Assembly: GCA_002720865.1 (NCBI GenBank)
Contig: PBIO01000025.1
Location: 17 to 64,016 of the forward strand
DNA from: Halobacteriovorax sp.
Lineage (GTDB): Bacteria > Bdellovibrionota > Bacteriovoracia > Bacteriovoracales > Bacteriovoracaceae
Length of the DNA: 64,000 nt
Direction: 5' to 3'
The notes under the pieces are model-generated. The model saw only the letters and a program-made list of their open reading frames with translations, was not told the DNA's origin and searched no databases. A program made the position numbers and the translations under genes. Below, piece after piece: positions 2,642-42,632 of this stretch. Every line of letters starts with the position of its first letter. The first letter of the stretch is position 1.

Positions 2642-2920
2642 ATGAATGGCGATAATGATAAAGATGGCATAATACCAAATAGTACATGCCATGGTGAACA
2701 TGAAAGATATGAAATAAAATGTGAAAAAAAGTCGTGCAAATATTGGCACGACTTACCCGACAGTCAGAATTGTATCATGATAGCTGCACGTAATGGGGAA
2801 CATACGCTACAACAAATAGGAGACATCTTTGGTGTCACAAGAATGAGAATATGCCAAATTGAAAAAATAATCTTTAAAAAGCTTTTAAAAAGATCTGATA
2901 TTCATTCAACCGTTGACTAG
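2642..2920 (+). CDS. small protein with sigma-70 region-4-like HTH
   Basis: C-terminal EHTLQQIGDIFGVTRMRICQIEKIIFKKLLKR fits the sigma region 4 pattern; Cys/His-rich N-terminus; only + strand gene in the first 18 kb. Confidence 0.55.
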   Translation: MNGDNDKDGIIPNSTCHGEHERYEIKCEKKSCKYWHDLPDSQNCIMIAARNGEHTLQQIGDIFGVTRMRICQIEKIIFKKLLKRSDIHSTVD

Positions 2921-4128
2921 TTTTTCATCCCACCAAACATTGTTATTGCAATTAATCCAGGAATTGAATCCTTAATATAGATTCCGGAAAACAATGTGTT
3001 TGCTCTTCCACCAACATATGCCGTAGCAGCCTCGAGCCGCTTACTAATATCCGGATCCGAAGCCATTAAAGAGGTTGCTAGCAACAATAGCACACCGGTC
3101 TCAGGTCCTTGTGTGGGGGCCGGACATGGTGACCCCTTAATGGAACCTTGGAGGAGAGTAGAGCCTATGTCACGCCCTCCTGTGTCCTTAACCACAGTAC
3201 TACCTAAAAAGATTCTTCCTGGAGTCTTAAGACATTTTTCTAAATCATTCGAATCAAATGCAGAAATAGATGAACTTTCATTAGCTAGTTTAAGGACCTG
3301 ATGTAATAGTTTTGCAAAAGAGTTATTTGCAGCAGGGTACATATTCAACAGGCCTACTTTACCCCTAAGTAATTGTAGTTGTCTTTCATTATCAATTATA
3401 ATATGAGGATTACCGGTAACATCATTAAGTGCAGTTGTGTAATTATTTTCAATTGTTGGGTTTAAAAGCTCTTGTGCAGTAGGCTTAGTAACAACATATA
3501 TAACACCACCCCCGGCCTCTATGGACTTAAGATACCTAGCTAGTGCATGAGTAAGGATAGAACTAGCAGATCCAGTACCACCTCCGCCACCAGCCAGAAC
3601 AAATACCCAATCGACATCATTACCGAGCCGGCTTCTACATGCATCTTCAACTAATGCACTATTTTCTTGAAGCAGCTTCTTTCCTAGTTCAATATCTTTT
3701 CCAACACCGTCTGATCCGGGGATTAAAACTACGTGATTTGAATCTACCCCATCCGGAAGATCTTTTTCCGTGGTATTAACAATTAATGTTTTATTAAACC
3801 CTAGATCTAAAAAAGCTTTTGCCAATTTTCCGCCGGCACCGCCGACACCGATAAAGGCACACTTTAATGCACTAGTAGCTGTATTCTCGGGTAATAGTCT
3901 ATCATCCTGGACAACTTCATCATCCATTCCTCCAACAAATCCCCAATCATCAACATCATTGATGTATGTATCGTCTGTCGTTTGGTCGGTATCTTTAGTA
4001 CTCATATTTTTTTCCTCTAAGGTTTCATCTTTTTGTTCATCGGCCTTTTTATAGGTAGGTTGTTTAAGATTGTTATTATTAACCTTTTTCCTAACTTTTG
4101 TAAACGCGGCCTTAATGCTACTAGCCAT
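2917..4128 (-). CDS. FtsZ/tubulin-superfamily GTPase (phage tubulin-like)
   Basis: GVGGAGGK G-box, GGGGGTGSA tubulin signature, IIIDNERQLQLL resembling the FtsZ T7 region; acidic ~90-aa N-terminal extension; GGAG RBS. Confidence 0.85.
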   Translation of the reverse strand: MASSIKAAFTKVRKKVNNNNLKQPTYKKADEQKDETLEEKNMSTKDTDQTTDDTYINDVDDWGFVGGMDDEVVQDDRLLPENTATSALKCAFIGVGGAGGKLAKAFLDLGFNKTLIVNTTEKDLPDGVDSNHVVLIPGSDGVGKDIELGKKLLQENSALVEDACRSRLGNDVDWVFVLAGGGGGTGSASSILTHALARYLKSIEAGGGVIYVVTKPTAQELLNPTIENNYTTALNDVTGNPHIIIDNERQLQLLRGKVGLLNMYPAANNSFAKLLHQVLKLANESSSISAFDSNDLEKCLKTPGRIFLGSTVVKDTGGRDIGSTLLQGSIKGSPCPAPTQGPETGVLLLLATSLMASDPDISKRLEAATAYVGGRANTLFSGIYIKDSIPGLIAITMFGGMKN

Positions 4129-30655: not shown

Positions 30656-30904
30656 TTACTTTTTTTGTGCTTTATTTAGGGCACCCATGATGGCCAGGGA
30701 GATGTTAGAGGCCTCAGGAGATGCAGTCTTGGGGGTAGGGTTAGCCATAAGCTGTACCGATCCCGTCCCTGGATCCATGTCTAGATGACCTGACCAGTAC
30801 CCCTCGATGACTACCTGGTAGATAAATCCAGGATTATTGGGGTCTAGACCTCGTGTTTTTAGCTCAGCCTGGACCCATTGATTTGCTTTAGGTGTCAACT
30901 TCAT
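30656..30904 (-). CDS. hypothetical protein
   Basis: 82 aa, ATGA overlap with the upstream VWA gene. Confidence 0.55.
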   Translation of the reverse strand: MKLTPKANQWVQAELKTRGLDPNNPGFIYQVVIEGYWSGHLDMDPGTGSVQLMANPTPKTASPEASNISLAIMGALNKAQKK

Positions 30905-32298
30905 GCTGCCTTCTTCCCCTTCATCTGAATGAGGAAGTCCCGCTTCGAAGCTTCGAAGTAGAGCTTCCGGTCAGGGGTAATTACCCATCCTCGCTTAAGG
31001 ATCGAAGGACCCGGGTCACAACACTCACCATCAGTGAGGATCAAGTACCCATCAAACCGATGACGATTCTTATTTGCATGTACCGTTGCAGCCCTAAAAT
31101 CAGTACCACCATAGCGAGTACGTTCCATTCCAGGTGCCCGATTCCGTCCCCACTCCCGCTCGGAGCTTTCATCAACCTCTGTATCAAAGTTAAAGATGGT
31201 GAACTTCGTCTTCTTGGCCAACTGCTTAAGCTCACCAAAGAGAAGGGAGAGATCCTCATCACTAACCGATCCACTCTGATCGATGTATACTGCGATTGAA
31301 GAGGTGTAGCCCTTTTGAAACCCGGGATGTACACCAGGATACTTGCGGTGGATCCGCCGGACGTTGCTAGCGCGGTTGGCGCGCCGGGTCATTCCGCAGA
31401 ACTTCTTAAGGACTGACTGCCAGGGAATCTCCTTGGAAATCAACTCTCGAATCATTGACTGGCCAGAAGCACCAACCGAACCCCATTGGCCGGACTGGTC
31501 ACACTTCTTAACAGCATCTTCAACTGCCTGCTTGACCTTGCCCTTAATAAGCTCACGATCCTCATCGGAAAGCTCATCCCAACCATCATGGCTATCCATG
31601 GTACCTGGCAATCCAGGAGCCGGTTGTCCCTGACCAGGTTGACCAGGTTGACCATCACCAGGCTGACCCTCACCCTCACCGTCACCAGGCTGACCTGGTG
31701 CAGGGGCAGGATTAGTCAATGCTTCCTGAACTTCATCATCAGCCATCAACTCGGCGAAATACCATTCGGCTGACTTTTCCTTGGGGAAGGATGCAATCTT
31801 TGCAGAGACTGTCTCAAACTGCTTGACCCTATCCGGTCCCATTGCGATCTTATCAGCCTCGCTCAGAGCCTTGAACTCCTTACCAGGTACCAAGCCACCC
31901 TCAGGCAACTCTTCCTCTGGAATCAGGCTGTTGATTGCAAGGTCAGTAGCGTAGTTCCAGACCAGGTGAGGCTCGTGGCGTCGTGTCGTGGTGTGTTCGA
32001 ACACCAGGTGGTAACACTCATGCTTAAGGAGACCCTTAATGTGCTTCGAAGGGAGCGCAGCAACAAAACGTGGGTTGTACCACATCTTGATATCACCGTC
32101 CTTGGCCAGGACACCGGCAGTGGGAATCGACTCCGACCGTACCTTGGTGATCTGACGAAGGATGTGGCTAAAGAATGGCTCCTCCCAAAGAAGATTAATC
32201 AGATGGGGATCAAGCTCAAATGCCTTAGCGGCAGCCTCAGAGGCGCGCTGCGTGTGGGCAAGTTCCGTGGATGTGGTGTCGTTTTTAGCCATGGCCAT
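30901..32298 (-). CDS. HExxH metallopeptidase-like + VWA domain protein (DUF2201/CobT-like partner of MoxR ATPases)
   Basis: HECYH motif, Pro/Gly/Gln-rich linker, MIDAS VYIDQSGSVS; start moved to ATG 32298 (AGGAAGGAAGG RBS) because a promoter lies inside the longer ORF. Confidence 0.75.
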   Translation of the reverse strand: MAMAKNDTTSTELAHTQRASEAAAKAFELDPHLINLLWEEPFFSHILRQITKVRSESIPTAGVLAKDGDIKMWYNPRFVAALPSKHIKGLLKHECYHLVFEHTTTRRHEPHLVWNYATDLAINSLIPEEELPEGGLVPGKEFKALSEADKIAMGPDRVKQFETVSAKIASFPKEKSAEWYFAELMADDEVQEALTNPAPAPGQPGDGEGEGQPGDGQPGQPGQGQPAPGLPGTMDSHDGWDELSDEDRELIKGKVKQAVEDAVKKCDQSGQWGSVGASGQSMIRELISKEIPWQSVLKKFCGMTRRANRASNVRRIHRKYPGVHPGFQKGYTSSIAVYIDQSGSVSDEDLSLLFGELKQLAKKTKFTIFNFDTEVDESSEREWGRNRAPGMERTRYGGTDFRAATVHANKNRHRFDGYLILTDGECCDPGPSILKRGWVITPDRKLYFEASKRDFLIQMKGKKAA

Positions 32299-32319
32299 TC
32301 CTTCCTTCCTTATAGTACT

Positions 32320-32352
32320 ATTATACCCTATAGAGGCGGATTTTGCACGAAC
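32320..32352 (-). promoter_or_regulatory. TTCGTGCAA-class promoter (P3)
   Basis: AAGTTCGTGCAAAA, 17-nt spacer, TATAAT (32325-32320). Confidence 0.75.
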
Positions 32353-32418
32353 TTGCATAACATTATTAATTATTTTGTATCGTCCTAAGCCCTTGATATT
32401 ATTAAGGTTTTTAGGCAA

Positions 32419-32694
32419 TTAAATAGCCTGCAACATGCTCAATGGGACGTCCCAATTCTGACCATGTCCGACACTACAAATAGCCTTTTTTCGTTTAACC
32501 CGTACGATGACGCCCTCCGTGTAACCATTCCGGCCAGTCCAGGATACCTTATCACCGGCATGTAGCGTACGACGCTTGACTGCAGATTGTCTATCTCGGA
32601 TTGACCTGAGGTGTTCAAGCACTGATCCATTAAGATCACGTAGCTGTCGGTCATCAAGGGTGTGGAGGTTGTTAATCATATCTGTGAGTGTCAT
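32419..32694 (-). CDS. small protein with C-terminal KOW-like segment
   Basis: HAGDKVSWTGRNGYTEGVIVRV. Confidence 0.55.
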   Translation of the reverse strand: MTLTDMINNLHTLDDRQLRDLNGSVLEHLRSIRDRQSAVKRRTLHAGDKVSWTGRNGYTEGVIVRVKRKKAICSVGHGQNWDVPLSMLQAI

Positions 32695-32741
32695 CTTGTC
32701 CTCGATCTAGTTAGCCAGGATGATCCCCAACCAACATGTAT

Positions 32742-32774
32742 ATTATACAATAGAGTTCGTAACTTTACACGAAT
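32742..32774 (-). promoter_or_regulatory. TTCGTGTAA-class promoter (P4)
   Basis: AATTCGTGTAAAG, 17-nt spacer, TATAAT (32747-32742). Confidence 0.7.
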
Positions 32775-32938
32775 TAGCTAAAGAAACCACCATAATATAG
32801 CAAGCCAATCATTAGTGGCAAATCTATAAATAGTGTAAGGGGTGCATTGTAATTGCCTTTCGGCTCACCGTGCTTAAGCAATGCTGCTGTAGTGTTAAAG
32901 GCTATAAGACAAATCATAATGATCTGGGGAATTCCCAT
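32774..32938 (-). CDS. small membrane protein (54 aa, not in ORF track)
   Basis: AGGAGAAGAAA RBS; MGIPQIIMICLIAF...LPLMIGLLYYGGFF. Confidence 0.5.
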   Translation of the reverse strand: MGIPQIIMICLIAFNTTAALLKHGEPKGNYNAPLTLFIDLPLMIGLLYYGGFFS

Positions 32939-32947
32939 TTTCTTCTC

Positions 32948-33043
32948 CTAGTAATGTCTATCGTTTTCAATTTTCATACCATGATACACACCTAATGCAT
33001 ATGCCATGGCTACAAATAATAGGCCTATAATAACTGCTAGCAT
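32948..33043 (-). CDS. small membrane peptide (31 aa, not in ORF track)
   Basis: AGGAAAGGAA RBS; MLAVIIGLLFVAMAYALGVYHG... Confidence 0.4.
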   Translation of the reverse strand: MLAVIIGLLFVAMAYALGVYHGMKIENDRHY

Positions 33044-33117
33044 TTCCTTTCCTGAAATGCGAGGGGCGAACCTTAGCCAGCATTACCTGTTACTAAGGCT
33101 GCACCCTCCTGGGTTCT

Positions 33118-34200
33118 TTAAACGTTTCGGCTAGCCTGAACTGCCTTGACGATAGTCTGACCAATCAGCTTGTGGATCTTCTGGATGTTCGGCAACTTCT
33201 GGGTAGCCGAAATGGCATTCCAAAGGGAGACCATCATTTCACCAGGAAGACTCTCAGCGAAGGCAGCCACGTTCTTAGCCTGGCTAGCTGTCCACTCGTT
33301 ATCTGTACAGTGGTTGGCCAACTTTTCAATCACCGCGTTGAGGCGATCGTTGGTCAGCTCCTTGACACGACCCTTAATGGAACCGTAGCTATCAAGGATG
33401 TCCTCGGCACTAACGATTGTCTCATAACCCTCGATGAAGGTAGTAAAGGCGATCGCGGCCTCGGTACCAACAAACCCCATCGCCGTAGCGTAGAATCCGT
33501 CGGCGCGCTTCTGGCCGGCCAGTTCGCTAGGAGCCATACCCATGTGGGTCAGCGAAGTAGCAAGGCGGTGCCATGAAGCGGGGTTCGGGCAAACCGTACC
33601 AGGCTCAACGCTACCAACGTCGACCCGGAGGTGCTGAGGATTCTGGCGGATGAAGTCAACAAGGACGTCATCAACGTTATTCTCACCAGCCCAGTTGATC
33701 CAATCAGCTGCAGTAGGCTCGAGGTCACAGACCCAAAAGCGGCGAAGAAGTGCCGGGTCCATGTCGTTAACATCATATTCTGAACCATGGTTGACAGCAG
33801 CAATCACCCGGGTCTGCGGGTGGAGGCGGTAAGGATTACCGTCCTTGTCGTTGCCAAGCTCTCGGTCCAGGACCAACTGGAAGAAAGACTGTTGGACGCC
33901 GGGGAGGGAGCGGTTAAGCTCATCCAGCATCAAAACAACAGGCTCTCGGCATGCCCGGATAAACCAGGATGGCATGCAGAAAGTCATGACACCATTTTCC
34001 TTCATACCCTCAAGATCAGGGTAACCACCAACATCACCTTCGGACATGGTAGAACCACGTACGTCGATAAAGGGCAGTCCAACGCTGTCCGCGACCTGCT
34101 TTCCGAGGAAAGACTTACCGACTCCGGTCGGTCCCCGCATGAGGATCGCGATGTCCGCGGGGAGGTTCGGGGCTACGATATTGAAAGTTTTGATGTCCAT
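33118..34200 (-). CDS. MoxR/CobS-like AAA+ ATPase (AAA_5 type)
   Basis: Walker A MRGPTGVGKS, Walker B VVLMLDELNRS, 360 aa. Confidence 0.85.
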   Translation of the reverse strand: MDIKTFNIVAPNLPADIAILMRGPTGVGKSFLGKQVADSVGLPFIDVRGSTMSEGDVGGYPDLEGMKENGVMTFCMPSWFIRACREPVVLMLDELNRSLPGVQQSFFQLVLDRELGNDKDGNPYRLHPQTRVIAAVNHGSEYDVNDMDPALLRRFWVCDLEPTAADWINWAGENNVDDVLVDFIRQNPQHLRVDVGSVEPGTVCPNPASWHRLATSLTHMGMAPSELAGQKRADGFYATAMGFVGTEAAIAFTTFIEGYETIVSAEDILDSYGSIKGRVKELTNDRLNAVIEKLANHCTDNEWTASQAKNVAAFAESLPGEMMVSLWNAISATQKLPNIQKIHKLIGQTIVKAVQASRNV

Positions 34201-37048: not shown

Positions 37049-37228
37049 CTATGGGTCAATAGGTTTCCGCCCATCTAGTTCAGGGAAGTCGCCGTACTCA
37101 AGCATCATCAGTGTGCGCAGATTATTCATTTGCGCTCTATCGTTGACTACCTTAAGTTGATTATCAAGGTGTTCAATCTTTTCCTCGAGCTTATCAATAC
37201 CAAGAAGCCATTTCAGAAATTTACGCAC
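37049..37228 (-). CDS. small coiled-coil protein (59 aa, GTG start)
   Basis: GTGCGTAA overlap with the upstream stop; VRKFLKWLLGIDKLEEKIEHLDNQLKVV... Confidence 0.4.
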   Translation of the reverse strand: MRKFLKWLLGIDKLEEKIEHLDNQLKVVNDRAQMNNLRTLMMLEYGDFPELDGRKPIDP

Positions 37229-37397
37229 TGCTAATTACCGTAAGCATTTCTTTAGTTGCAACAACTTCTGTTTGAGACTCTTGGCATCTGACCTCATAAA
37301 CAAATCCCGTTCCCACAGAATATCTAACGACCATGATTAGTCCAAGCTCCTCGTTTCCAGATCTAGTTATAACTCTTACCAAATCACCGACTTTCAT
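37221..37397 (-). CDS. KOW-like MKxGDLV-family protein
   Basis: start ATG 37397: MKVGDLVRVITRSGNEELGLIMVV. Confidence 0.6.
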   Translation of the reverse strand: MKVGDLVRVITRSGNEELGLIMVVRYSVGTGFVYEVRCQESQTEVVATKEMLTVISSA

Positions 37398-37581
37398 TGA
37401 TAATACTCCACTTTGTATAGTCAAGTCGAGTCACCCAACTCCGACCATCATCACTTAGAATCCTCAACCGAGGGGTCTTTTGATACTCTCCTGTCTTAGG
37501 CGGCATCACTCCCAGTACTAGGGCAATGCAACCATGTGCCTTAATCAGGTCACCTTCTTTGACATGGTTACCAGGTTTCAT
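37384..37581 (-). CDS. KOW-like MKxGDLV-family protein
   Basis: start ATG 37581: MKPGNHVKEGDLIKA; ends IINESR with the 14-nt overlap. Confidence 0.55.
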   Translation of the reverse strand: MKPGNHVKEGDLIKAHGCIALVLGVMPPKTGEYQKTPRLRILSDDGRSWVTRLDYTKWSIINESR

Positions 37582-37745
37582 TGAATTGGCTCCATCAATC
37601 GTTGCAGTACCCAATTAAGCCGGCCGTCTGACCACTTAACAAGGTAGGTTGGATCTGCAGACTCAATAGCTTGGTGGTAACCAATAATGATACCCAATAG
37701 CCCACCTTCAGAGAGTTTATGTCTTACCATGTCACCGATCTTCAT
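37578..37745 (-). CDS. KOW-like MKxGDLV-family protein (55 aa, not in ORF track)
   Basis: MKIGDMVRHKLSEGGLLGIIIGY...; ATGA overlap downstream. Confidence 0.55.
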   Translation of the reverse strand: MKIGDMVRHKLSEGGLLGIIIGYHQAIESADPTYLVKWSDGRLNWVLQRLMEPIQ

Positions 37746-37747
37746 AG

Positions 37748-37993
37748 TCATCGCAACAACTCTCCATACGCTTCTTTTCCATACTCTTCCCAGTCATCCA
37801 GGGACCACAGATCATCTCGATCTGTCCAGAAGGTATATGGATCCAGGGTCGGTCGACCGGTAAGTGATCGCTTACTAGCCATGACCTCGAAATTCCCTTC
37901 TCTTCCACCTCTGCCAGTAGTAACCACAATCCCAGTTTGCAGGTCATTATGATAGTAGTCTTCGAAAATCACCACGTCACCAAGCTTAAGCAT
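37748..37993 (-). CDS. KOW-like family protein
   Basis: start ATG 37993 (AGGAAAAAG RBS): MLKLGDVVIFEDYY...GIVVTTG. Confidence 0.55.
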   Translation of the reverse strand: MLKLGDVVIFEDYYHNDLQTGIVVTTGRGGREGNFEVMASKRSLTGRPTLDPYTFWTDRDDLWSLDDWEEYGKEAYGELLR

Positions 37994-38003
37994 ATTCTTT
38001 TTC

Positions 38004-38267
38004 CTATCGTCGCTCGATGCCAAACCACTCTGGGCGGCCACACTCATTCCACTCGGCAGTCGTCATCAGATCCTCACGCTCTCGCCAGATAATCATCTCC
38101 TCATAAATCCCATGTTCCGGGAGTGCGCATACCTTCACCAAGTAGTGGCCGGCTTCGTATCCGGTGATGACTCCTGCCATGATAGCGTTTGCGGCGAAGT
38201 CTTCGTAGTGAACGACGTCGTTAATCTTAAGCACTATATCTATCTTTCTAAAGTAGCGAGGATCCAT
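38004..38267 (-). CDS. KOW-like family protein (diverged)
   Basis: LKINDVVHYEDF...AGVITGY; own promoter. Confidence 0.55.
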   Translation of the reverse strand: MDPRYFRKIDIVLKINDVVHYEDFAANAIMAGVITGYEAGHYLVKVCALPEHGIYEEMIIWREREDLMTTAEWNECGRPEWFGIERR

Positions 38268-38382: not shown

Positions 38383-38577
38383 ATGTTAGATAGATATAGA
38401 GAGTGGATTTCTCATATGTCAGATGGTCAAGCTGACCTAATGGCATCTTTTGGTTACCTGGTGTGGTGTAGCTTACTAGTAACCGGAATATTATCATACG
38501 GTGCTGGTGCTTTAATACCTATGGTTCTATCTTTTGGCCTGGCCGGTGTATTAACTGCATCCGTATACATTCATTAA
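38383..38577 (+). CDS. small membrane protein
   Basis: GAGG RBS; two hydrophobic helices. Confidence 0.55.
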   Translation: MLDRYREWISHMSDGQADLMASFGYLVWCSLLVTGILSYGAGALIPMVLSFGLAGVLTASVYIH

Positions 38578-39392
38578 ATGCAATCCTCAACATATTCAGG
38601 CCAGTATTGAAGTACTTCTGCCTGTGAGAAAAATTCATTCTGAGAATCTGTCCAGTGCTCCGGAGCATCATTTCTTGATATATTTTCAGTCCCTGTACCA
38701 GACCTCTGATGCCATGTGTGACAAAAATACTCTTTGGCAGCGGTCATGGCAACCTTGTCCTCAATATATTTGCATTTGTATTCAAGTGCTGGATCACCAG
38801 AATCCCAAAATGGCCAGGCCTTAATAGAAACCCACAGGGGTACCAAGCCATTCGCCTCATTGTCAATTGATAATATTTCACCATTCTCATCTATCCCAGT
38901 TATAAAGGGGTATGTGTGCTGACGTGGGGTACTGTAAAACATATCTTGGTCTGAACAGGCGTTTCTTAAGAATATATCCATTCTTGCATCTTCAGTTGTT
39001 ATCCAGAATGGATCCATATTGGAAAATGCGCCAGCTTCGATACCAGCAACTATTCCATGTATTAGAGATTCGAAGCTATAATCTAGATAATACAAAGGTT
39101 GGCCAGAAGGTGCTATCTGCGCCTGACGTTCATCAGGAGCTCCGTCTCCAAAAAGCCTCGGCCTTAATATCCGGTTCGTTGCATGGTCGATATAGAACTG
39201 AATTGCCTTCTCAATTTCTTCAGAGAAGACAGGTATCTGGTCAACATCAATCTGTTCTCCTGGGTCAGGAGGTATAATATGTTGAGATGGTTGATCATCA
39301 ACTTCCTGAATGTCAGGTGTGTTCGTTGTTGGTAGTTCAGTTTCTTGAGAATTTGCTTCGTGGATGCTGGGTTGGTCTGGGTTATGATAGTT
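38574..39392 (-). CDS. open frame continuous with the upstream gene across TGA 39393-39395 (the track ORF 38574..39095 is its 3' part)
   Basis: 99 codons between the TGA and TTG 39095 contain no stop and no ATG/GTG/TTG; the sequence is protein-like (acidic/Pro linker, then EEIEKAIQFYIDHATNRIL...). Confidence 0.5.
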   Translation of the reverse strand, partial: NYHNPDQPSIHEANSQETELPTTNTPDIQEVDDQPSQHIIPPDPGEQIDVDQIPVFSEEIEKAIQFYIDHATNRILRPRLFGDGAPDERQAQIAPSGQPLYYLDYSFESLIHGIVAGIEAGAFSNMDPFWITTEDARMDIFLRNACSDQDMFYSTPRQHTYPFITGIDENGEILSIDNEANGLVPLWVSIKAWPFWDSGDPALEYKCKYIEDKVAMTAAKEYFCHTWHQRSGTGTENISRNDAPEHWTDSQNEFFSQAEVLQYWPEYVEDCI

Positions 39393-40217
39393 TCAATTTT
39401 CAATAAACTCTATCAACAAATCAGAAATATCATAGGCAGTCTCAATCAACACTTCAATGCTAGTACGTTCTTCTTCTGTAACATCTTCTTTTAAAGTAAC
39501 CGGGAGGGAATCTAATAGGTCTTTTGCTTCTTTAGGTGATAATCCGGTTATATCCCGCACCAACTTGATCATATCGACTTTCTCATTTAGGTCATAGCCA
39601 TGAAGCCGAACAGTATAGCTAACATCGTCAGCCGGTGGGGTAATAGTTTCTTCATCTTCATGAGAATCCTGCGTCATGAGCTCTGCTAGACTTACTTTCA
39701 TATTGTTCAACTCAACAGCAATATCTGCACATAACTTTTCATTTTTAGCAATTTCATTTTTGAGTGCGTCAGTTGTTTGTTGTTCACGTTTTTCAAGATT
39801 GTTCAGCGCGTCGCTGTTGCTCTTGGTCTTACCCCAATGTTTGTCAATAGCAGTACTTAAAGCCTCAATCTCGCCAACAAAATGTTCACTGATTGCCTTA
39901 TCACAGCGGTTTGCAATTTCTTCTATTACGTCAATTCGCTTTGAGATCTTATCTAAGTCTAGCTTTGAGTCTAATTTAGACATCTCGTCTATAACCCTGT
40001 GTATGTTATCCCATATCCTTATTTGATCCATTGCCATTGTTGAAATAGATGACATGTATGAGCTCAAGGTTTGTTCAATTTCTTCATCGCTAGCATCTGA
40101 GCTTGCTATTACCTTTAATAGCGCAGATTTTCTTTCTAATTCAATCTCTTTTTTTATCTCTTTTTTAAGATCTTCATTATTTTTCTCTATTCCAAATAAT
40201 CTTAATATCCAGCTCAT
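39393..40217 (-). CDS. coiled-coil protein with ribosomal L7/L12 C-terminal-domain homology
   Basis: KVDMIKLVRDITGLSPKEAKDLLDSLPVTLKEDVTEEE matches the bL12 CTD pattern K..VIK.VR..TGLGLKEAKDLV...P..KE.V.KEEA; start set at ATG 40217 (MSWILRLFG). Confidence 0.7.
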   Translation of the reverse strand: MSWILRLFGIEKNNEDLKKEIKKEIELERKSALLKVIASSDASDEEIEQTLSSYMSSISTMAMDQIRIWDNIHRVIDEMSKLDSKLDLDKISKRIDVIEEIANRCDKAISEHFVGEIEALSTAIDKHWGKTKSNSDALNNLEKREQQTTDALKNEIAKNEKLCADIAVELNNMKVSLAELMTQDSHEDEETITPPADDVSYTVRLHGYDLNEKVDMIKLVRDITGLSPKEAKDLLDSLPVTLKEDVTEEERTSIEVLIETAYDISDLLIEFIEN

Positions 40218-41732: not shown

Positions 41733-42632
41733 TTAATCTTCATCATAATCGTCGATATCATCAAATACATAACTACAATTATCTTCAAAATAGTCAATAA
41801 TCAAATCGAGTGGTTCTGTATATTCAACATCATCGATAACCCAAAAATCATCCAGACCATCGGCAATGATCTCTGTTAAAATATCTTCGGGGTTATCTGG
41901 GCACCAATCTTCACAAAAATCTTGAATACGTATTTTTAACACGTCAAGTCTTTCTGCATTCCAAAAATAAGAATCAATCGTATCAGGCGTCGATAAAAAG
42001 ATATATTTCTTTACCTTATGCTCTACGTCATCGGTGTTCCAATATTCTAACTCAAAAACTATCTCAATATTCTCATCATTGTCTTCAGGTATTGGAAACC
42101 TAAATGGGTCAAGAAAAAGGGACTGCAATGATACTCCACTCGGAGCGCCGCACCATGACAAATCAACCGGTGCCTCGAGGCTGGGTGAAAATAAGATCCG
42201 ATTAGTAGAATTTGGAGGCTGTGTGTATACAGTATACAGCAGATTATTGTACTTTGACTTAAGGCCGACGATATCAGGAAATTTAGAATTATTTAAAAGC
42301 TCTATTACATTATCTGCAGATATTACGCCGCCGCGGCCGCATAATGCAATACCGTCATGATTATTTAATAAATCCCATTCATGGCCATATACCTCTTTTT
42401 CAATCATCATTAGGCGATCATCGATATCAGATATGTCATGAAGCCCTAGTTCATCAATATCATCATAAAGCTCTGATATCGCTGTAGCGGTTATATTTTG
42501 TTGATCTACATGACCTTGTTTTAAAAGCTTTAAATTTGATACTAGCTCTTTTTCTTTTTTCTTTTGGTCGTTAACGAATTGATCAAACTCTTTTTTTGAA
42601 ACGGTCCCAAATAGCCTTGCCCAGAAAGACAT
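41733..42632 (-). CDS. acidic protein sharing the MSxW.RLFG N-terminus with 39393..40217
   Basis: MSFWARLFGTVSKKE... versus MSWILRLFGIEKNNE...; very acidic C-terminus. Confidence 0.6.
   Translation of the reverse strand: MSFWARLFGTVSKKEFDQFVNDQKKKEKELVSNLKLLKQGHVDQQNITATAISELYDDIDELGLHDISDIDDRLMMIEKEVYGHEWDLLNNHDGIALCGRGGVISADNVIELLNNSKFPDIVGLKSKYNNLLYTVYTQPPNSTNRILFSPSLEAPVDLSWCGAPSGVSLQSLFLDPFRFPIPEDNDENIEIVFELEYWNTDDVEHKVKKYIFLSTPDTIDSYFWNAERLDVLKIRIQDFCEDWCPDNPEDILTEIIADGLDDFWVIDDVEYTEPLDLIIDYFEDNCSYVFDDIDDYDED

Follow-up and report, generated by a model that had tools for sequence, protein, structure and literature searches.

[quoted passage not shown] An earlier note, made from the DNA letters alone, had described the product as a bL12 CTD grafted onto a phage coiled-coil protein and had singled out its stop codon as a possible read-through site. 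The window, by which we mean the whole 64,000-nucleotide stretch of DNA that was analysed, is part of a 101-kb contig (C25) in an assembly of 33 contigs and 4.9 Mb.

We accept C25 as a fragment of a large phage. The tmRNA and rplL genes of the host lie on a different contig, C14, and C25 carries a second tmRNA. The helicase encoded on C25 has its best matches in phages of 300-735 kb. The contig also encodes PrkA, SpoVR and a neighbouring protein matching phrog_19072, PhoH, a tRNA nucleotidyltransferase and a DNA polymerase exonuclease; the PrkA/SpoVR neighbour, the nucleotidyltransferase and the exonuclease are those with PHROG matches. An identical copy of the bL12-CTD protein occurs elsewhere on a contig of 176.8 kb. 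C25 itself yielded neither a capsid nor a terminase gene. Terminase matches are present on C7 (12988-13416) and C15 (23834-24262), where identical large-subunit matches lie in 452-aa frames, the explanation being either a double assembly of this terminase region or the presence of two phage copies.

The gene encodes a product of 274 amino acids, and its parts are listed in the table. The start codon is the ATG at 40217-40215, with the sequence AAAGGA 9 nt 5' of it. A longer, TTG-initiated reading of 293 aa is not needed, since the only diverged homologue, P0002, begins at the same ATG position. This homologue is encoded, together with the same downstream frame, by a variant contig from a metagenome, L018, which we retrieved with a degenerate DNA pattern.

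Features of the bL12-CTD gene and of the frame behind it (positions in the window)
Feature	Position	Strand	Basis
CDS, bL12-CTD protein, short isoform (274 aa)	39396..40217	-	ORF list; ATG position same in homologue P0002; AAAGGA upstream
N-terminal hydrophobic motif MSWILRLFG	40191..40217	-	recurs in 41733-42632 gene (MSFWARLFG)
Helical, probably coiled-coil region, residues 2-183, no known family	39669..40214	-	AlphaFold2 helices; crude heptad score
Acidic/proline linker, residues 184-200	39618..39668	-	AlphaFold2: no secondary structure; pLDDT <50 at residues 188-196
bL12 C-terminal domain, residues 201-274	39396..39617	-	Pfam, phmmer, AlphaFold2, Foldseek
VDMIK, residues 214-218 = E. coli L12 66-70, first factor-contact region	39564..39578	-	alignment; PMC3505967
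PKEAKD, residues 228-233 = E. coli L12 80-85, second factor-contact region, L80 replaced by Pro	39519..39536	-	alignment; PMC3505967
TGA stop, probably leaky, context AAT TGA AAC	39393..39395	-	stop and context identical in L018
99 in-frame codons without ATG, GTG or TTG, read in the frame of the bL12-CTD gene	39096..39392	-	codon usage; synonymous bias against L018
Rest of downstream frame, 173-aa ORF as called from TTG, ORFan	38574..39095	-	ORF list; homology searches; AlphaFold2 uninformative

In a Pfam search, the C-terminus of the protein matched PF00542 (Ribosomal_L12 C-terminal domain) over profile positions 2-54 of 67, with an E-value of 1.2e-11 and a score of 45.2 bits against a curated cut-off of 25.9 bits. 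When PDB sequences were searched with phmmer, only bL12 chains were returned, the best of them the CTD of E. coli L7/L12 (1ctf, E 1.1e-6). AlphaFold2 (AF2), run on a small alignment (A1), predicted a beta-alpha-alpha-beta-alpha-beta fold for residues 201-273, with block-mean pLDDT values of 64-85, and Foldseek aligned this predicted domain with 1ctf at a TM-score of 0.81, an rmsd of 2.0 Å and 38% identity. The last strand (residues 268-273), which is beyond the reach of the Pfam profile, is predicted structurally and finishes one residue before the stop. The N-degron adaptor ClpS has a similar alpha/beta fold (Foldseek TM 0.6-0.7), but its identity to the domain is only 11-18%, the protein has no Pfam match to the ClpS family, and in sequence it clearly sides with bL12. 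What the earlier note had read from the last ~70 residues is thus borne out both by the profile HMM and by the predicted fold: residues 201-273 form a genuine bL12 CTD.

The protein shares this CTD fold with cellular bL12 (RplL; PDB 1CTF and 1RQU), including a topology that ends at the protein terminus, and its CTD is 36-40% identical to cellular bL12 in alignment A1, with local matches of up to 50% to the bL12 of relatives. In contrast to cellular bL12, it has no N-terminal dimerisation and uL10-binding domain and no Ala/Gly hinge, it carries Pro in place of L80, it is 274 rather than about 120-130 aa long, and it is encoded outside an rplJ-rplL operon. A match to the N-terminal domain, PF16320, was absent from the Pfam search of the protein even at E<=10. 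Lacking this domain, the protein cannot dimerise on uL10 or serve as a uL10-bound subunit of the ribosomal stalk. The best single-domain matches are metagenomic proteins of bL12 length. Recent capture of the domain from the present host was considered and rejected, because the host bL12 is just 42% identical and is not the closest match.

The N-terminal domain had been taken, in the earlier note, to be replaced by a long coiled coil. Its absence is confirmed and a helical region does stand in its place; that this region is a coiled coil is probable, given AF2 helices at residues 2-37, 44-80 and 88-183 of low confidence (pLDDT about 45-79) and a heptad periodicity that lies 3.8 SD above shuffled sequences on a crude, home-made score. 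We searched 1.84 billion representatives exhaustively with HMMER and obtained 430 matches. Among the best 150 of these, leaving aside the two products of the window itself, the best-matching stretch overlaps the bL12 domain in all but one, the exception being a coiled-coil match, P0020; relatives of the helical region were not seen among the matches listed. A search restricted to residues 1-60 and a search of the Atlas added nothing, the Atlas leads being weak. For residues 1-195 no relatives were found beyond P0002 and P0003, and for the helical part, the 99-codon segment and the downstream part no homologues beyond near-identical variants. The scan of viral contigs and a first metagenome scan returned no relatives, and a scan of genome contigs returned only ordinary bL12-like matches. 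An ESCRT-III/PspA-like reading of the N-terminal motif and the long helices found no support, the Pfam, Atlas and Foldseek searches all coming back empty.

Within this phage group, the first ~100 residues weakly resemble a stand-alone 100-aa protein encoded at L018:2583-2882 (pairwise E 0.007). A similar N-terminal motif followed by a K/E-rich helix is seen at window positions 41733-42632 and 37049-37228 and at L018:2583-2882 (MSFWARLFG, ..FLKWLLGIDK, MNIILRWLGLEK), and the combination may be an N-terminal module that these phages share.

The L018 homologue is 86% identical to the window protein at aligned residues, and the conservation is unevenly distributed. Within the 274-aa gene, the protein segment that has changed least is the bL12 domain, with 94.9% identity between the two variants; in the middle of the helical region, identity falls to 67.5% and there is a 34-residue indel. 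The same protein end is present on nine contigs from several sources. At the nucleotide level, the divergence between window 38574-40217 and L018:799-2553 forms a mosaic, with a dS of 1.48 in the mid-helical region and of 0.03-0.17 from the bL12 domain onward. Gene order differs as well: the gene for a small membrane protein follows the locus and is convergent with it in the window (38383-38577), whereas in L018 (553-759) it precedes the locus and is divergent.

Can the phage domain still contact translation factors? In the E. coli L12-CTD, NMR has mapped the regions that shift on binding of EF-G or EF4 to residues 66-70 and 80-85 (PMC3505967). At these positions the phage protein is identical to E. 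coli in 8 of 11 residues, reading VDMIK where E. coli has VAVIK and PKEAKD where it has LKEAKD. The uL11-contacting K95 is kept as well, and any changes among the core leucines are conservative. The Pro at position 80 replaces a Leu that is invariant in the eight cellular bL12 sequences aligned. Because the 8 of 11 contact residues and K95 are retained, it is plausible that the protein binds translational GTPases. The earlier note had gone further, suggesting that the chimera might titrate translation factors or bring them to another site. Bulk titration is unlikely, since isolated bL12 CTDs bind the factors with a Kd of only 0.1-0.4 mM (PMC3505967) and the factors are abundant; delivery of translation factors to another site is possible. 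The significance that the note attached to a tmRNA in the same genome found no support, and we reject a tmRNA link via bL12, since the published connection between bL12 and trans-translation depends on the N-terminal domain of bL12 (PMC12548414), a part missing from this protein.

Phage proteins with bL12 domains have been described before. Mizuno et al. 2019 reported that the bL12 domains of phages make up whole proteins less often than they form part of far longer polypeptides, which reach 724 aa, that they retained the residues contacting elongation factors, and that they were acquired several times independently (PMC6375957). We found further phage proteins annotated as 'bL12 C-terminal domain-containing' in BFVD, 92-308 aa long and including one of 308 aa from the crAss-like phage cr126_1, and tblastn with the domain gave weak matches in N4-like Erwinia phages and in Streptomyces phages. 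The same search found a full-length bL12 in a 735-kb uncultured phage (L015:2351-2722; LR756501.1), a 123-aa protein with both domains, as opposed to the head-only graft seen here.

By its sequence, the window protein belongs to the class already described, that of phage bL12 domains inside unrelated polypeptides. [quoted passage not shown] It differs from them in having no detectable sequence relation outside the domain, in coming from a jumbo-phage-like genome whereas the cultivated examples are smaller than 80 kb, and in placing the domain C-terminally behind a coiled-coil-like region and in front of a conserved, apparently leaky TGA.

The FSL SP-076 protein was detected in 70S preparations (PMC6375957), and this brings up the possibility that the window protein is an extra or replacement stalk element, one that would attach to host ribosomes independently of uL10 and alter the recruitment of factors for phage translation. 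Conservation of the uL11 contact K95 and the presence of a tmRNA and a tRNA nucleotidyltransferase on the same contig would fit such a function. We give it a low probability, however, as the uL10-binding domain is absent and a tagged phage bL12-domain protein could not be used to purify ribosomes in the study of Mizuno et al. (PMC6375957).

Use of the bL12 head outside the ribosome is not peculiar to phages. Cellular, non-ribosomal PF00542 proteins (P0005-P0016, P0022, P0054, P0059, P0072) employ it in this way, and some of them, the Nostoc protein P0016 for example, also have a coiled-coil N-terminus. Unlike the window protein, they are cellular and often tandem, with one to seven copies of the domain, to which TIR, KAP NTPase, kinase, PNP or LRV modules are joined; among the matches listed, none shares the N-terminal or the downstream parts of the phage protein. 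Predicted proteins of public genomes and metagenomes with two to six bL12 CTDs (P0059, P0054, P0072, P0022, P0140, P0007 and P0015) combine them with TIR_2, a KAP P-loop NTPase, PNP_UDP_1 plus pentapeptide repeats, a Ser/Thr kinase, SEC-C, or LRV/HEAT repeats, architectures which suggest that immune-like proteins draw on the stalk head repeatedly as a module.

Such proteins suggest two other readings of the phage domain. One is that the bL12/ClpS fold is generic here, mediating protein-protein contacts or multimerisation without any tie to translation, in a protein with some other role, for example a structural or regulatory one. PF00542 does occur in many non-ribosomal cellular proteins, where it is repeated two to seven times in tandem or joined to unrelated domains, and Kaur et al. 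2020 described a 'multimerizing L12/ClpS domain' inserted in cellular vWA-MoxR conflict systems (PMC7159879). The residues that the phage domain has retained, on the other hand, are specifically those for factor contact (8 of 11) and K95, and the domain is the segment of the 274-aa protein that differs least between the variants; we therefore regard a purely generic module as unlikely. The other reading is that of an anti-defence decoy, in which the free head would soak up immune effectors that dock on bL12, such as the CARF-RelE protein Cami1, or would disrupt defence proteins that themselves carry bL12 heads. Cami1, which cleaves A-site mRNA after cA4 signalling (PMC11229360), has been solved on the 70S ribosome with a bL12 chain (PDB 8phj), and the TIR_2, KAP NTPase, PNP_UDP_1 and Ser/Thr kinase partners of the cellular PF00542 fusions are typical immune effector or NTPase modules. 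The case for a decoy is circumstantial throughout, and the neighbourhood of the phage gene speaks against it, consisting as it does of ORFans and lipoprotein-like genes on a contig rich in ORFans; we consider this role quite unlikely.

We then turn to the stop codon. Behind the TGA, 272 codons are open in the same frame, and the first 99 of them contain no ATG, GTG or TTG. In L018 the TGA and its context are identical, and the corresponding 99 codons are likewise devoid of a canonical start. In frame, the 99-codon segment has a codon-usage score of 0.458, compared with 0.36 ± 0.12 for genes and -0.83 ± 0.36 for off-frame sequence. Between the window and L018 the segment differs at 11 nucleotides, of which 10 are synonymous third-position changes and one replaces Ile by Val; the other two frames would give synonymous to non-synonymous ratios of 1/10 and 0/11. 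This corresponds, in the frame of the bL12-CTD gene, to a dN/dS of 0.025 (binomial P 2e-6). Because 10 of the 11 differences are synonymous in this frame, the comparison indicates that the 99-codon segment is translated in the frame of the bL12-domain gene. The locus thus shows the pattern of programmed read-through genes: a stop that is conserved in frame and, behind it, an extension without canonical start codons on which strong purifying selection acts in that frame. The most likely explanation, on this comparative evidence, is partial, gene-specific read-through of the TGA, which would produce an isoform of 547 aa. The read-through stop that the earlier note had offered as a possibility has in this way gained strong support.

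Genome-wide recoding of TGA was also considered and was rejected. The codon otherwise behaves as an ordinary stop, ending 23 of the 68 long ORFs on the contig; it is not enriched at junctions where a single stop separates two stretches of the same frame; and no suppressor or Sec tRNA was found in the assembly. The region after the UGA showed no RNA structure of the SECIS-like or stimulatory-hairpin kind (z -0.35). We count the lack of structure after the UGA and of a suppressor or Sec tRNA in the assembly against the read-through part of our interpretation.

If termination at the TGA were complete, the locus would consist of two separate genes, and the 99-codon segment would open the second of them by way of a non-canonical codon, such as the ATC at codon 10 of the segment (the bridge), or by re-initiation. 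In favour of this, TGA is used as an ordinary stop on the contig, the bL12 fold is already complete when the codon is reached, and gene callers split the locus in two. Moreover, the first informative substitution occurs only at bridge codon 25, the 24 codons before it being without one, which leaves non-canonical initiation possible. But neither variant has an ATG, GTG or TTG in the 99 codons, no purine-rich Shine-Dalgarno sequence precedes the bridge ATC, and the frame is continuous across a TGA whose context is identical in both variants. Two separate genes are, in our judgement, decidedly unlikely. A broken gene, that is, a 547-aa protein cut by a nonsense mutation or by an assembly error, would equally show one in-frame stop between two long open stretches. 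This explanation is nearly excluded, as the same protein end recurs on the nine contigs from several sources, the TGA has been kept in a variant whose dS reaches 1.48 elsewhere in the gene, and the codons downstream of it are under purifying selection.

With read-through as the preferred explanation, the extension itself is an ORFan in homology searches, and its AF2 model is uninformative (pLDDT 38.6). A precedent for such a gene exists in phage Qbeta, where UGA read-through of the coat gene gives A1, a minor, longer isoform. Like the A1 gene, the window gene would be a phage gene that ends in UGA and has a translated in-frame extension, in this case inferred from comparative data alone. The two differ in that Qbeta is an RNA phage and A1 a capsid protein, whereas the gene described here belongs to a dsDNA phage and encodes a non-structural-looking protein. 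Phage proteins with bL12 domains were already known; the apparent read-through of a stop behind the bL12 head is the new result, and for a dsDNA phage gene it supplies comparative evidence that an ordinary UGA is read through.

What, then, might the protein do? We propose that the helical region oligomerises and so displays several stalk-like heads, whose largely conserved factor-binding surface would catch translational GTPases (EF-Tu, EF-G, IF2, RF3) or further proteins whose docking site is the stalk head. The factors caught would be held at whatever the N-terminal part binds and, in the long form, at whatever the C-terminal part binds. Partial read-through of the TGA would yield two forms: in the shorter, of 274 aa, the head sits at the C-terminus, and in the longer, of 547 aa, it lies inside the chain. 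The protein would then be a tether or scaffold and not a bulk sink. Oligomerisation is inferred from a low-confidence model and a crude heptad score. In favour of this proposal we count the identity of the domain, the contact residues it retains, the conservation of the CTD between the variants, the missing bL12 N-terminal domain, the phage context, the comparative case for read-through, and the precedent of Mizuno et al.; against it we count the change of L80 to Pro, the weak affinity of isolated heads, and the lack of homologues of the helical region or the extension. Taking these sequence-based arguments together, and with the two isoforms included, we put the chances that the protein is an oligomeric scaffold presenting stalk-like heads to translational GTPases or other head-docking proteins at about even.

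A more specific version, in which a leaky UGA at the end of the head lets a dsDNA jumbo phage make two forms of a stalk mimic that act on translational GTPases or as a decoy for immune effectors, is a long shot. Were it true, one form would have its head free at the C-terminus, and the other would have it placed between the coiled coil and the 272-residue extension. Read-through could then even be self-regulated by way of RF3, a bL12-binding GTPase of the termination and read-through machinery. The clean architecture of a helical scaffold, a linker and an intact head, the conservation of the domain in two variants, and the tmRNA and CCA-adding enzyme on the phage make this protein a practical candidate for asking whether translation factors or immune effectors are partners of free bL12 heads.

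Several other features of the phage contig and the assembly deserve mention. The CCA-adding tRNA nucleotidyltransferase match covers the N-terminus of a 626-aa protein on C25 (89888-91768; L014:7888-9768, minus strand), the C-terminus of which matches a 5'-3' deoxyribonucleotidase family; its gene is a further one on the phage contig with a relation to translation. On another contig, C16 (48.8 kb), six tRNA genes (Met, Lys, Arg, Asn, Pro, Gly), with no suppressor tRNA among them, may be a phage-borne set. Beside the tmRNA in the window, a 403-aa protein (2917-4128, minus strand) has a sub-threshold match to the Tubulin/FtsZ GTPase domain (30.8 bits, cut-off 33). The stretch at 30901-34200, about 5 kb from the bL12-domain gene, encodes a MoxR-type AAA+ ATPase along with a metallopeptidase-VWA (DUF2201) protein. 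Closer to that gene, at 37049-38267 on the minus strand, a run of at least four small ORFs, each of 57-99 aa, shares an opening motif of the type K-[ILV]-G/N-D-[LMV]-V and, by this likeness, looks like a tandem family of small paralogues.
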